64,000 bases of DNA from NCBI GenBank assembly GCA_031425655.1, contig JANPJS010000034.1:31805-95804 (forward strand), read 5' to 3'. The position numbers are program-made. Every line of letters starts with the position of its first letter. Position 1 is the first letter of the stretch. The stretch comes from Abditibacteriaceae bacterium (GTDB lineage: Bacteria; Armatimonadota; Abditibacteriia; Abditibacteriales; Abditibacteriaceae). Positions 21,001 through 24,000 of this stretch are shown here, piece by piece.

Positions 21001-24000
21001 TCCTCGCGCGATTTATCCACGAACGGCCCGCCGGAGGCCGTAATCGTGATGCGCGCGGCGCTGCTCTGCGCTTCTCCGAGCAGGCATTGGGCAATCGCCG
21101 AATGCTCGCTGTCCACGGGCAACAAGTCCACGCCGTGTTTGCGCGCCGCTGTCGTCACCATTTCGCCTGCCGCGACGAGAGTTTCTTTGTTGGCGATGGC
21201 GATTTGTTTTCCCGATTCGATGGCCGTTAATGTTGGGCCAAGTCCCGCTGCACCGAGCATCGCACCGAGCATCAGCGTGGCTTCGGGATGCGCCGCGACT
21301 TCGGCCACGCCGCCGCTTCCGCCCACGATGCGCGTCGGGCCGCTTATCATTTCGCGCAGGCGTTGGGCCGCGTTTTCATCGGCTAACGCGGCGATTTTCG
21401 GTTGCCATTCCGCGACTTGCTGGGCGAACAGTTCGAGATTGGAGCCGGCGGCGAGTCCGACGACGCGCAGGCGATGCGGCAACGCCCGCGCCACTTCGAG
21501 CGCCTGACGCCCGATGCTGCCGGTGCTGCCGAGAATAACGATGGATTTTGGCTCGCTCATGCGCGGAAATGGGCTTATTCGGGTGTAGCGTGGCTGTCAG
21601 CGGAGGCCGGAGGCGCCACGCTTTGTAACAGCGTGCCCGATTGGCGAGCGCCAAGAATCATCAGGCCGCCGATTATTAAAACTGGCAAAAAGCGGTCGAG
21701 CAGGGTGCCGCGTCGGGGTGTTAAGTGCCAGCCCTGAATAGAAACAGGCATTGGAAGTTCAGTAGAAGCAGCTTTGACGGGCGAATTGGAAAACGCGGAT
21801 GGGCCTGCTTCGCCGGAGCCTGACATTACCGCTTGATGAGCAGGCGGCGCTAAGGCTTCGCGCAATTTCCACAGCGCGAAACTAATGGCTACGACGGCTA
21901 ATTTGGCGACAACCGGCGCCTCAATCGTGATGATTCCGGCTAATGCGCCCATCGCGAAAGCCCCGGCAATGGTTGCCAGATAGCCGAGCAGTGGGGCCGG
22001 TGAAAGTTGCTTGAAAGCCGCGCCGAACGCGCTCATGGTGGCGATAGCAACCATCAGCGAGGCCATCATCAGGCCAATGGAAAGCACTAAAATCACGAAA
22101 TCCGATTCGTTGCGGAAGTTGAAATAAATAAAGCCGCCGCTGGAAAGCGCCACAGCCGTGGCAAGTGGTTCCTGTGTCCACAGGCCGCGCCGCGCCAGAG
22201 CCTCGCTCCATTCCTGCGCCGCCATGTAAACCGCCAAGCCGCACGCGAGCAAAAAAGCCGTGCCGTGCAACGCAGGAATGGCTGCGTCTAAGCCTAATCC
22301 GAGCAGCAAAGCGCCGAATAACAAGGTGTCGAAAAGTCGGTTGGAAACTACCATCGCGGAATTCAGGATAACAAACTTGAGTTATGAATTTTGAGTTTTA
22401 AGTTTTGAGTTAGGCTGGCTCCTAATAACTCAAAACTCAAAATTCATAACTCAAAACTAATCTTTCACGCCTCCGAAGCGGCGGTCGCGTTTACTGAAGT
22501 CGAGAATGGCGCGGTGCAGTTCGGCGGGCGAAAAGTCCGGCCAGAGCGTCGGCGTCACCCACAATTCGGCATAGGCGATTTGCCAGGGCAGGAAGTTGGA
22601 AATACGCATTTCGCCGCCGGTGCGAATCATCAAATCGGGTTCGGGCAAACCGGCGGTGTAAAGCGAATCGGTGATATGCGTTTCAGTGAGTTCGTCGGCG
22701 CTCAGGCGACCCGCCTGGATTTCGCTGAGCAGGTGGCGAAAGGCATCGGTGATTTCGGCGCGGCCTCCATAATTCAAGGCCAGACTTAGGACTAAGCCGG
22801 TGTTTTTTACGGTTGCGCTGATGCAGTCGTCAATTTGGCGCAAGAGATGGTTCGGCAAGCCTTCGCGCCGCCCGATGTGGCGCACTTGAATGTTATTGGC
22901 GATCATGTCCGGCAATTCCTGCTTCAGATTGCGCGTAATCAGACGCAAAAGCGCCGTGACTTCGGACGATGGACGCTTCCAGTTTTCCGTGGAAAAGGTG
23001 TAAATCGTGAGCGCCGGAATTTTCAGGTTGACGCATTCCTGAATAATGTCGCGCGTGGAGCGGGCGCCGACCGAGTGGCCGCGAATGACCATCCAGCCGC
23101 GCGCTTTGGCCCAGCGCCGATTGCCGTCCATAATGATCGCGATATGCTGCGGCATTTTCTGAGGATCAAGCGGTTCAGACGACGCCGTGTCGGAAGAAGA
23201 GCGGGGTTGAGACAGCATGATAGTTAAGAATCGGAACGTGGAGCGGCTGGTTCGGGCTTGGGTAATTGTTCGCGCGCGATGAGAATTTCACAACGCGTTT
23301 CGGAATTGGAGGAAACGCGGCAGCGAAGCACGCGCCAATCACCGAGCGGCCCGGAGGCGCGCGGCGGAACCGTCTCGACAATCGTCAATTCGTGTCCGAT
23401 TAATGCCTTGCGCGCTTCTTCTAAGGGCCAGCCGGTGACATCGGGGACGATCATTTCGCGCGAATGGAAGAAAGTTGCTGACATGAACGCGCTCAAACTT
23501 CCATGATGTCGGCTTCTTTGGCAGCGCGCAGTTTGTCGGCGTCGGCGACAAGGCGGTCGGTGATTTTCTGCACTTCGCCTTCGTAGCGCTGCACGTCGTC
23601 TTTGGTCAGACCACCGTCTTTTTCCAGTTTTTTCAATTGATCGTTGGCGTCGCGGCGAATGTTCCGCAGCGCGACTTTGTGCGCTTCGGCCTTTTTTGCG
23701 GCCATTTTTACCATTTCTTTGCGGCGCTCTTCGTTAAGCGTCGGGACGGAAACGCGCACGTTATCGCCGTCGCGGATGGCTTGAATTCCCAGATCGCTTT
23801 TGGAAATCGCGTTGGCGATTTGCGGCGCGAGAGCTTTGTCCCACGGCGTCACGAGAATCTGGCGCGGATCGGGCGAAGTGACGTTGGCGACCTGTTTCAG
23901 CGGCGTCGGCGTGCCGTAATATTCGACCATGACGCGGTCGAGAAGCGCGGGATTGGCCCGCCCTGTGCGCAGCGTTCCAAGATCGGTTTCCAGATCGTGC

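Follow-up and report, generated by a model that had tools for sequence, protein, structure and literature searches.

A conserved CdsA-derived membrane protein without catalytic residues and a lineage-wide gap in phospholipid head-group enzymes in Abditibacteriaceae

In textbook bacterial phospholipid synthesis, CDP-diacylglycerol (CDP-DAG) is passed on to PgsA or Pss. Enzymes of the CDP-alcohol phosphatidyltransferase type (PgsA, PssA and PIS; PF01066) carry the signature D-x2-D-G-x2-A-R-x(6-14)-G-x3-D-x3-D. The chemistry of CdsA takes place at the CMP phosphorus, whereas a phosphatidyltransferase attacks the phosphatidyl phosphorus. Some bacteria carry a second gene of the CdsA family, such as ynbB of Escherichia coli, whose product is still an active CDP-DAG synthase and has its catalytic motifs intact.

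The structure of CdsA is known from TmCdsA (PF01148; PDB 4Q2E). As described in PMC4083444, its nine helices form: (i) an N-terminal helix; (ii) a middle domain (M2-5); and (iii) a C-terminal domain (M6-9). The same paper gives D144, K167, D219, E222, K226, D246 and D249 as the essential active-site residues, with D219 and D249 forming the Asp-Asp dyad that binds Mg and K (PMC4083444).

A less usual class of lipids is formed by the phosphatidylglyceroylalkylamines. According to a meeting abstract, all phospholipids of Chthonomonas belong to this class, as in Deinococcus (PMC3367263). Lipids of this type are present in D. radiodurans, with phosphoglycolipids known since 1985, according to the reference list of PMC9189128. 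No enzyme is named as their head-group synthase in the accessible portion of PMC9636437.

The window analysed here, i.e., the whole stretch of 64,000 nucleotides from an Abditibacteriaceae genome, contains a small membrane protein gene, g00449, at the place where cdsA stands in related bacteria. The features of this locus, in window coordinates, are the following:

17857..18960, reverse strand: ispG (GcpE; PF04551, E 3.9e-137), the end of the conserved cluster
19062..20372, reverse strand: rseP, an M50 site-2 protease with a PDZ domain (PF02163, E 8.1e-54), part of the conserved cluster
20397..21560, reverse strand: dxr (PF02670, PF08436 and PF13288)
21575..22354, reverse strand: g00449, the slot protein (ATG start; 259 aa; seven-helix membrane protein), a CdsA-derived relic without the catalytic residues
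22457..23218, reverse strand: uppS, undecaprenyl diphosphate synthase (PF01255, E 7e-80), the upstream neighbour of g00449
23493..24050, reverse strand: frr, ribosome recycling factor (PF01765, E 3.2e-63), the head of the conserved cluster

Known head-group enzymes in the genome and in the phylum

The genome searched (5.98 Mb in 327 contigs, 97.15% complete, 0.45% contaminated) has a complete CdsA (C164:6782-7630, E 1.6e-51), the candidate maker of CDP-DAG, together with two copies of Lgt, Lnt, PlsX, three PlsC-type acyltransferases, and PlsY with an adjoining GpsA-like ORF. An earlier note on this DNA had claimed that, despite CdsA, Lgt and Lnt, no known head-group enzyme is present, and the new searches agree. 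PF01066, which is matched in 13 of the 14 control genomes (archaea included), gave no match in the whole genome at E<=10; there were likewise no matches to PF02666, searched for Psd, at E<=10 and none to PgpA (PF04608). Only three long frames (1085, 1003 and 901 aa) were matched by PF13091, with no HKD protein of the size or architecture of a lipid synthase among them.

The motif searches gave the same picture. The CDP-alcohol phosphatidyltransferase signature, used as a regular expression, had no match in the 20,765 stop-to-stop frames of at least 100 aa of this genome; as a control, it picks out 11 of 12 PF01066 loci from Armatimonadota. When an HMM was made from these 11 proteins and run with --max against 10,648 ORFs of the genome, the best E was 0.24. 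Single-copy ORFs with four or more hydrophobic segments were also scanned with Pfam (131 in all, from 133 candidates minus two in the window, picked out of 232); no CAP, PLD or PSS-like family came up, and 45 of these ORFs have no Pfam family. No telling unknown membrane enzyme was found among the neighbours of the cdsA, lgt, plsY, plsX and plsC genes of the genome. Two other candidates were set aside: (i) a 446-aa PAP2-like protein (C119:34078-35418), whose catalytic motifs appear degenerate by eye; and (ii) a weak second PF01148 match at C249 (E 0.119, with stops), which corresponds to an alanine-rich antisense frame.

The gap extends well beyond this genome. CdsA was found in all 121 sampled Armatimonadota genomes, yet 105 of them (around 87%) are without every known user of its product, PF01066 being present in the other 16; Deinococcus is the only other such case met in this analysis. 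Within the window's own family, PF01066 occurs in none of 12 genomes, and these include assemblies of one, two and three contigs. Because the enzyme is missing even there, holes in the assembly do not explain the gap, which, as the earlier note had it, must be regarded as a trait of the lineage. Psd was detected in 7 of the 121 sampled genomes. The Psd-like genes of one family (f21), which lie beside a GCS2-like ligase and a GT2, have no homologue in the window genome at E<=1e-3. Finally, an uncharacterised MobA-like nucleotidyltransferase linked to cdsA (G000:C212:35-775, with orthologues that adjoin cdsA) is present in 120 of the 121 sampled genomes. The gap left by PgsA, Pss, Psd and PLD-type synthases is, then, real, both in this genome and across the sampled phylum.

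Descent of g00449 from CdsA and loss of the active site

The gene order frr-uppS-[g00449]-dxr-rseP-ispG, which the earlier note had already described as a conserved cluster with g00449 in the slot of cdsA, was reproduced; dxr starts on the same strand, 14 bp past the stop codon of g00449. A true cdsA immediately follows uppS in five other sampled Armatimonadota genomes (G115, G018, G069, G088 and G002), and in a further genome (G031) it stands immediately ahead of dxr-rseP-ispG. Between uppS and dxr or rseP, the relic is found in the family of the window genome (f1) and also in families f8 and f31; that place is empty in the examined loci of f14, f18 and f28. In one genus (g4) uppS has moved off, and the slot gene is still adjacent to dxr in three of the four loci read (L021, L022 and L024), whereas at L019 an ORF other than dxr lies downstream of it.

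By family models, g00449 is a blank: it belongs to no Pfam or NCBIfam family (lowest Pfam E 0.3), it is not recognised by CTP_transf_1 at E<=1, and a genome-wide PF01148 search also misses the locus. It has 114 homologues at E<=1e-3, exactly the number previously counted, and none of the 114 carries a Pfam domain. More sensitive comparisons lead to CdsA. A profile of the g00449 family matches the true CdsA of G031 (E 1.2e-5 within that genome), which is the very CdsA that heads a dxr-rseP-ispG cluster. A wider relic profile, run against 1.84 billion proteins, retrieved only 50 representatives, one of which (P0151) is a bona fide CdsA (PF01148, E 2e-48) matched full-length with a whole-library E of 1.1e-4. 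In an hhalign comparison of 33 relics with 23 CdsAs (E 2.9e-4, probability 40%, 145 columns), E48 of the relic was aligned with the invariant Glu in helix 2 of CdsA. When a single CdsA sequence was used instead, hhalign aligned the C-terminal motif alone (E 0.34). This motif, RGTLLDR in g00449 versus GHGGxLDRxD in CdsA, is the short one that the earlier note had pointed out.

Regarding structure, the AF2 model of g00449 (pLDDT 80.4) has seven helices, and a fold search with it placed TmCdsA (4q2e_A) first of 48,161 chains, with a Z of 9.8, an rmsd of 4.7 and 173 of 259 residues aligned (model residues 4-244). Only two of the 48,161 chains reached a Z of at least 8. The match is as middling as had been claimed before: the fold tool itself cautions that helical models often attain Z values of 8-13 by chance. 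Foldseek found nothing in the PDB at E<=0.001, and the best match of a PDB sequence search with the family profile was a GPCR (E 0.13). Among the ESM Atlas lookalikes, all those with an assigned family belong to the CTP_transf_1 clan (scores 0.82-0.85), which is to be taken as a lead only. The model of an f8-type slot protein, based on 11 sequences, was too poor for a fold search (pLDDT 52.4).

Each single homology statistic is modest. The profile-profile and profile-sequence statistics nonetheless support, at the level of sequence, a common descent of g00449 with CdsA (PF01148); and since synteny, the profile match to true CdsA, the hhalign comparison and the top fold match all point the same way, it can be stated that g00449 descends from the cdsA of an ancestral frr-uppS-cdsA-dxr-rseP-ispG cluster. 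An essential lipid enzyme has been duplicated, and the copy in the ancestral operon has been stripped of its active site, yet retained.

How much has been lost can be read from the alignments. In those of CdsA, the D, K, K and D-R-x-D positions that correspond to essential residues of TmCdsA are invariant and G-D is nearly so; of the dyad, the second Asp never varies and the first hardly does. In the relic alignment, only one of the seven TmCdsA active-site residues is kept, namely the equivalent of D246 (D220, followed by R221), and there are no equivalents of D144, K167, D219, E222, K226 and D249. The Asp dyad for Mg and K is not found in the relic alignment, where D220-R221-x is followed by L or P instead of D, and neither are the motifs DTxAY, SPGKTxEG and GDLxESxxKR. 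The relic does keep the regions that align to the N-terminal helix, the middle (dimerisation) domain and the start of the C-terminal domain of CdsA, as well as the last helix, which carries the D-R of the CdsA signature; approximately two helices are gone, and the AF2 model predicts a 45-residue disordered linker where CdsA has its catalytic helices. As both Mg/K ligands are among the lost residues, g00449 is unable to make CDP-DAG in the way CdsA does. In the sister families f8 and f31 the LLDR motif has been lost too, and only D23, G31, E48, L100, G136, G140 and G216 are left as invariant residues. Within the g00449 family, several invariant charged residues lie in or near helices, namely D23, E48, E62, D85, K163, R165 and E166.

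Selection, distribution and possible role of g00449

The gene is present with an intact frame in 26 of the 27 genomes of its family and, as a single copy, in all 16 of the high-quality ones. The relic alignment (33 sequences, 42-80% identical to the protein of the window) has 35 invariant columns, and in one genome pair the dN/dS of g00449 was 0.16, with 0.14 for uppS and 0.18 for frr, which shows g00449 to be a genuine gene kept by purifying selection. A search of sequencing runs listed no RNA run with this stretch, and one DNA run that contains it and may be what the assembly was made from. The g00449 family, on the other hand, is confined to three related bacterial families, being present in 23 of the 121 sampled Armatimonadota genomes and missing from 84 of the 105 that have no PF01066. 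On account of the latter figure, we infer that the missing CDP-DAG consumer is, in general, something other than g00449. The earlier interpretation must hence be divided: the head-group gap and the three cues on g00449 (position, motif and fold) stood, and its casting of g00449 as the enzyme that uses CDP-DAG found no support, given the loss of six of seven active-site residues and this narrow distribution.

The explanation that we regard as probable, taken as a whole, combines a conserved CdsA-derived relic with a lineage-wide head-group gap. According to it, g00449 would act as a non-catalytic, CdsA-like membrane protein. A role as a scaffold or regulatory partner, in which the middle domain that it has kept would join it to a second g00449 or to the catalytic CdsA, is quite possible, at somewhat below even chances; another new membrane role, which would make use of the conserved D23, E48, D85 and K163-R165-E166, is also possible, to a lesser degree; and catalysis with CDP-DAG is unlikely. 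A real function in catalysis or transport would likewise be compatible with the conserved charged residues within the helices. A predicted complex of the catalytic CdsA (residues 125-416) with g00449 scored 0.00 against a mark of 0.32, a result that counts neither way on binding. In any case, g00449 is a candidate membrane pseudoenzyme, retained under selection across three bacterial families.

Other explanations of g00449 are harder to reconcile with these data. That it is a decaying remnant devoid of function, as the loss of its ancestor's catalytic core and the complete CdsA elsewhere in the genome might suggest, is largely refuted and scarcely credible: the frame is intact in 26 of the 27 genomes of the family, 35 columns are invariant, the dN/dS of 0.16 is near that of neighbouring housekeeping genes, and the protein family persists across three bacterial families. 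It could also be a membrane protein specific to the lineage, without relation to CdsA, that stands in the cdsA slot by accident, its likeness to CdsA being the chance resemblance of helical bundles; the lack of a CTP_transf_1 match at E<=1, the empty Foldseek search at E<=0.001, the hhalign probability of just 40% and the frequency of chance Z values of 8-13 all speak for this. It is nevertheless very unlikely, as the gene lies in the exact slot that cdsA occupies in relatives, the matches to true CdsAs reach E 1.1e-4 in the whole library (full length) and E 1.2e-5 in G031, CdsA ranks first of 48,161 chains, and both the conserved Glu and the D-R motif align in register. A further possibility is that g00449 is a new enzyme built on the CdsA scaffold, which would bind CDP-DAG and transfer its phosphatidyl group to the alcohol of a head group, thereby replacing PgsA/Pss in Abditibacteriaceae. 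Derivation from the one family known to bind CDP-DAG, retention of D220-R221 and of several invariant charged residues, purifying selection, and single-copy presence in all 16 high-quality genomes of a family without any known CDP-DAG consumer would favour such an enzyme. Against it stand the loss of both metal ligands, of four more active-site residues and of some two catalytic-domain helices, the different phosphorus atom at which a phosphatidyltransferase must act, and the disappearance of even the LLDR motif in sister families f8 and f31. Moreover, of the 105 genomes in which PF01066 is missing, 84 are also devoid of the relic, and the phylum must therefore have found another solution. On balance, the new enzyme is improbable.

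The gap itself might be an artefact if a CDP-alcohol phosphatidyltransferase or PLD-type synthase had diverged so far that the profiles miss it; g00449 would then be irrelevant. The absence of such an enzyme has, after all, been judged from profiles and motifs, small enzymes of the membrane are quick to diverge, and 45 of the 131 scanned polytopic ORFs have no Pfam family. There is, however, little chance that this is so: 13 of the 14 distant controls are matched by PF01066 and this genome is not, even at E<=10; the Armatimonadota-built HMM, with filters off, stops at E 0.24; the signature is in none of the six frames, yet in 11 of 12 positive loci; 105 of the 121 genomes, some of them closed or almost so, show the same gap; and Psd and PgpA are missing too, which fits an absent pathway better than one diverged gene.

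Lipid class and comparison with known systems

With the conserved relic and the head-group gap retained as the preferred explanation, the question becomes what uses CDP-DAG in these bacteria. Among the control genomes, D. radiodurans is the single one without PF01066, and CdsA and Lgt are matched there; the Thermus control genome does have PF01066. Thermus makes the same lipid class as Deinococcus. Considering the lipids of Chthonomonas and the CdsA-without-PF01066 pattern of D. radiodurans, the lack of PgsA, Pss and Psd is what a phosphatidylglyceroylalkylamine membrane predicts. By this analogy, there is a slightly better than even chance that these bacteria build phospholipids of the phosphatidylglyceroylalkylamine type with a CDP-DAG-consuming synthase of an as yet unidentified family; the CDP-DAG supplied by CdsA would be used by the synthase of these lipids, a new enzyme family. 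The link draws on one meeting abstract about Chthonomonas, a member of Armatimonadota, but of another class than Abditibacteriaceae. Literature searches found no polar-lipid analysis of Abditibacteriaceae, and nothing relevant on CDP-alcohol phosphatidyltransferase or CDP-diacylglycerol in Deinococcus. In some lineages PF01066 may itself be the synthase, as Thermus and at least one sampled CdsA-bearing Armatimonadota genome have it.

A broader proposal joins all these elements: the 105 of 121 Armatimonadota genomes, the window genome and D. radiodurans would share a new CDP-DAG-consuming family, the phosphatidylglyceroylalkylamine synthase; in the Abditibacteriaceae lineage g00449 would be its CDP-DAG-binding subunit or transferase; and the MobA-like nucleotidyltransferase would be a further part. 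It is put forward tentatively, as a rather doubtful combination. If the lipid reading is true, the "unknown enzyme" narrows to a question that has already been posed, and bringing Armatimonadota and Deinococcota together provides a comparative-genomics handle (shared families near cdsA) on the old head-group problem. The gap also raises the question of which diacylglyceryl donor Lgt uses when phosphatidylglycerol is absent.

Compared with the phosphatidylglyceroylalkylamine producers, the window genome shares with D. radiodurans the presence of CdsA and Lgt without a detectable PF01066; it differs from Thermus, which has PF01066. With the PgsA/PssA/PIS type it has in common the reaction that it seems to need, i.e., the use of CDP-DAG. 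It differs in that no sequence, motif or profile likeness to PF01066 appears anywhere in the genome; g00449, in particular, is without the CAP signature, and the PIPS structure 6wm5 came only at rank 20 in Foldseek (E 3.7).

The closest known system is CdsA itself (PF01148; TmCdsA). The two share: (i) a place in the cluster between uppS and dxr or rseP; (ii) probably, on the g00449 model, the helical arrangement of the N-terminal and middle domains (Z 9.8 over 173 residues); and (iii) the helix-2 Glu and the D-R of the C-terminal signature, which align. In contrast, TmCdsA has nine helices (PMC4083444) and the g00449 model seven; six of the seven active-site residues are gone and the Pfam model is blind to the protein. 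Nor does g00449 replace CdsA: it stands beside a complete one. In this last respect the window genome resembles the YnbB case, with a second CdsA-family gene per genome, the difference being that YnbB has kept the catalytic motifs and the relic has lost them.

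Head-group enzymes in the genome and in the phylum sample

The earlier note had claimed that this genome (G000; 5.98 Mb in 327 contigs, 97.15% complete) makes CDP-diacylglycerol (CDP-DAG) and encodes no known enzyme for phospholipid head groups, and this gap was confirmed. The CDP-alcohol phosphatidyltransferase family (CAP; PF01066) and phosphatidylserine decarboxylase (Psd; PF02666) gave no matches in G000 at E<=10, with 13 of 14 control genomes giving one for PF01066; PgpA had no matches either, and those to the PLD-type profile PF13091 were restricted to long frames of 1085, 1003 and 901 aa. 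Two added CAP controls were negative: (i) a regular expression for the CAP signature motif matched none of 20,765 frames of G000, the same expression recovering 11 of 12 Armatimonadota PF01066 loci as a positive control; and (ii) an HMM from those 11 proteins, run with filters off on 10,648 ORFs of G000, reached a best E of only 0.24.

The genome does contain PlsX, PlsY (with an adjoining GpsA-like ORF), three PlsC-type acyltransferases, two copies of Lgt, Lnt and a full CdsA. Two of these genes are placed as follows:

G000:C164:6782-7630: full CdsA match (E 1.6e-51) in a 416-aa ORF
G000:C45:28485-29192 (in locus L066): second, shorter Lgt-like gene, 235 aa (PF01790, E 5.2e-34)

The true cdsA frame (L001 1486-2736, minus strand) corresponds to G000:C164:6767-8017; if translation begins at the first ATG, its product carries a ~130-aa low-complexity N-terminal extension rich in Pro, Glu and Thr. 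Long cdsA frames (350-670 aa) also occur in several other Armatimonadota. Beside the shorter Lgt-like gene is one for a protein of 519 aa that has a Cys motif at its N terminus.

The gap is lineage-wide. Among 121 sampled Armatimonadota genomes (118 of them >=90% complete and <=5% contaminated), CdsA is found in all 121, whereas PF01066 is found in 16 and Psd in 7; neither occurs in f1, the family of the window, which is represented by 12 genomes, among them assemblies of 1, 2 and 3 contigs. No known consumer of CDP-DAG is present in 105 of the 121 genomes. In two of the 16 genomes with PF01066 (G066, C55:70807-73806; G040, C35:6470-7926), the PF01066 gene adjoins one of two cdsA copies and looks like part of an acquired cdsA-pgsA cassette. 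The Psd-like genes of family f21 (L112, L116; genomes G033 and G090, where PF01066 is absent) share an operon with genes for a GCS2-like carboxylate-amine ligase, a GT2 glycosyltransferase and a small coiled-coil protein; this decarboxylase may act on a substrate other than phosphatidylserine.

A very probable CdsA descendant in the cdsA slot

The gene g00449 and the genes around it in the window are as follows, the cluster itself running from frr to ispG:

17857-18960, minus strand: ispG, strong Pfam match
19062-20372, minus strand: rseP, strong Pfam match
20397-21560, minus strand: dxr, strong Pfam match, starting 14 bp past the g00449 stop
21575-22354, minus strand: g00449, ORF of 259 aa with an ATG start
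22457-23218, minus strand: uppS, strong Pfam match
23224-23496, minus strand: 90-aa ORF between frr and uppS, overlapping the frr stop
23493-24050, minus strand: frr, strong Pfam match
25184-27493, minus strand: 769-aa polytopic membrane protein, downstream of a xylose-isomerase-like ORF

The 90-aa ORF weakly matches a PASTA domain, at an E of 3.3e-4 that does not pass the cut-off.

For g00449, Pfam gave no family at E<=0.1 and NCBIfam no meaningful model. None of its 114 homologues (E<=1e-3) carries a Pfam domain, and the few with a name are annotated as hypothetical proteins, from MAGs of Armatimonadota or Abditibacteriaceae. In an alignment of 33 homologues, 35 columns are invariant, many of them polar and in or near helices; the polar invariants are D23, Q61, N82, D85, K163, R165 and E166, together with the block P213-x-x-G-x-L-L-D-R. 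The AF2 model (mean pLDDT 80.4) has seven helices, with residues ~170-215 disordered N-terminal to the last one.

In many bacteria, cdsA is the gene between uppS and dxr/rseP. In the sample, true cdsA stands immediately after uppS in five genomes (G115, G018, G069, G088, G002) and immediately before dxr in G031, whose 338-aa CdsA, with the complete motif set and directly 5' of dxr-rseP-ispG, is matched by the g00449 family profile (E 1.2e-5). Profile-profile comparison (hhalign) of 33 slot proteins with 23 Armatimonadota CdsAs gave E 2.9e-4 and a probability of 40% over 145 columns, placing residues 29-178 on CdsA 37-233 and E48 on an invariant CdsA Glu. When a wider joint profile (A3) was run against 1.84 billion representatives, just 50 proteins were retrieved at E<=1e-3. 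These include P0151 (E 1.1e-4), which aligned over its full length and is itself a complete CdsA (PF01148, E 2e-48). At the level of fold, an all-against-all comparison with 48,161 chains ranked TmCdsA (4q2e_A) first for the g00449 model (Z 9.8, rmsd 4.7, 173 residues aligned, spanning model residues 4-244), and only two chains reached Z>=8. ESM Atlas lookalikes with an assigned family all belong to the CTP_transf_1 clan (scores 0.82-0.85, of lead level). A Foldseek search with the model found nothing, and Pfam's own CdsA model does not detect g00449. Each homology statistic is modest taken singly; combined with the position in the cdsA slot, the profile-sequence, profile-profile, whole-library and fold lines tie g00449 to CdsA, and common descent is very probable. 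Five divergent metagenomic relatives (P0142, P0144, P0146, P0149, P0150) form a graded series from CdsA to g00449; they have extra helices where g00449 has its disordered linker, and preserve the R-x-L/I-D-R motif in variant forms, to varying degree.

According to PMC4083444, TmCdsA comprises (i) an N-terminal helix; (ii) a middle domain, M2-5, where the dimer interface lies; and (iii) a catalytic C-terminal domain (M6-9). D219 and D249 hold its Mg/K centre, with D144, K167, E222, K226 and D246 in support; replacement of D219 or D249 by alanine costs ~98% of activity (same paper). In our Armatimonadota CdsA alignments, the D, K, K and D-R-x-D positions are invariant and G-D nearly so. In the alignment of g00449 and its homologues, by contrast, the equivalents of both ligands are missing: the DTxAY, SPGKTxEG and GDLxESxxKR motifs are absent, the residue at the D249 position is L or P, and the active-site remnant is D220-R221 only (D246-R247 of TmCdsA). 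The parts kept are equivalent to the N-terminal helix and the dimerisation domain, followed by roughly one helix from the C-terminal domain and by a final helix. Judged by these residues, g00449 is not an active CdsA but a catalytically disabled descendant; it represents a conserved, pseudoenzyme-like family derived from CdsA.

Retention, distribution and candidate consumers

The gene g00449 remains functional. An intact copy is present in 26 of the family's 27 genomes and in all 16 of high quality; dN/dS between G000 and G019 is 0.16, and the values for uppS and frr in this pair are 0.14 and 0.18, these figures being rough because dS is saturated. In genus g4, where uppS has moved away, the slot protein is directly before dxr in three of the four loci read (L021, L022, L024).

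In families f8 and f31, the uppS-rseP slot holds a polytopic protein of 300-350 aa that aligns with g00449 across the first five helices and has in common with it D23, G31, E48, D85, the MM pair, G136 and G140; LLDR is lost. With the A3 profile, the family is found in 23 of 121 genomes (f1 12/12, f8 4/4, f31 7/7) and in no other family of the sample; weak PF01066 matches also occur in two f31 genomes (G063, G092). In the loci examined of f14, f18 and f28, dxr directly follows uppS, and uppS, dxr and frr are all missing from the 1.5 kb around each of the best 30 cdsA loci of the phylum by score. An unrooted UppS tree of the best 30 rows by score, a set selected by similarity, places the 23 genomes with the slot protein on one side of a branch (support 99/98), and the protein could have arisen just once, in the common ancestor of f1, f8 and f31. 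Among the 105 genomes without PF01066, 21 have the slot protein and 84 do not; therefore, g00449 is not the CDP-DAG consumer in most of the phylum. The proposal in the earlier note that g00449 is the missing enzyme is thus not supported, given both its disabled active site and its narrow distribution, while the gap itself stands.

The neighbourhoods of cdsA, lgt, plsX, plsY and plsC in G000 offered no clear consumer candidate. When 131 single-copy polytopic ORFs were scanned against Pfam, no CAP, PLD or PSS-type family emerged; 45 of these ORFs have no Pfam family at all. The following genes were considered:

G000:C164:7992-8966 (L001 2711-3685), minus strand: YihY/BrkB-family membrane protein (PF03631, E 9.3e-51)
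G000:C212:35-775 (L215 2-799), plus strand: MobA-like gene, at the start of contig C212
L210-L214 and L216: cdsA-linked orthologues of the MobA-like gene
G000:C119:34078-35418 (L150 18502-19839), plus strand: PAP2-family protein, 446 aa (E 3e-8)

The YihY/BrkB gene is directly before cdsA, overlapping its start by 26 nt in G000, an arrangement found in 7 of 12 f1 genomes; in the five g4 genomes, a HAD-IIA phosphatase occupies its place. The MobA-like protein belongs to an NTP_transf_3 family present in 120 of 121 genomes, with no NCBIfam equivalog and just weak likeness to MobA, MocA, CofC and IspD. Among the matches listed, its gene adjoins cdsA in at least 4 of 5 f28, 4 of 5 f12 and 8 of 10 f14 genomes, and lies 1.3-1.6 kb away in at least 6 of 7 f6 genomes, with one MFS gene in between in the two loci read (L210, L216); families f28 and f12 have a gene for a YegS-like lipid kinase upstream of it. 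The MobA-like protein is the most notable lead and could belong to the missing head-group pathway. In the PAP2-family protein, the three catalytic motifs appear degenerate by eye, with His positions replaced.

Comparison with Deinococcus, Thermus and related phyla

Abditibacteriaceae have their own phylum at NCBI, Abditibacteriota, and are grouped with Armatimonadota in the genome sample used here; Chthonomonas, whose phospholipids are reported in a meeting abstract to be all phosphatidylglyceroylalkylamines (PMC3367263), is also a member of Armatimonadota. Eremiobacterota, placed beside Armatimonadota among "sister cultured phyla", include an isolate with only unidentified glycolipids and lipids (PMC9758169).

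The one control genome giving no PF01066 match is that of Deinococcus radiodurans, which, like G000, has CdsA, Lgt, PlsX and PlsC. Its specific phosphoglycolipids are called "unique for this bacterium" in a JBC paper (PMC9189128), which cites phosphatidylglyceroylalkylamine as their precursor (Anderson and Hansen, 1985; Huang and Anderson, 1991). By analogy, we lean slightly towards the view that Abditibacteriaceae and most Armatimonadota would build lipids of the phosphatidylglyceroylalkylamine class, and the presence of CdsA with no known consumer is plausibly tied to that pathway. If so, the missing enzyme would be the synthase of that class, and the diacylglyceryl donor of Lgt would have to be something other than phosphatidylglycerol. 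For Thermus, a "probable" pathway via phosphatidyl-glyceric alkylamine is proposed in a 2022 paper. Unlike D. radiodurans, Thermus has PF01066, so a member of this family could be the synthase in some lineages.
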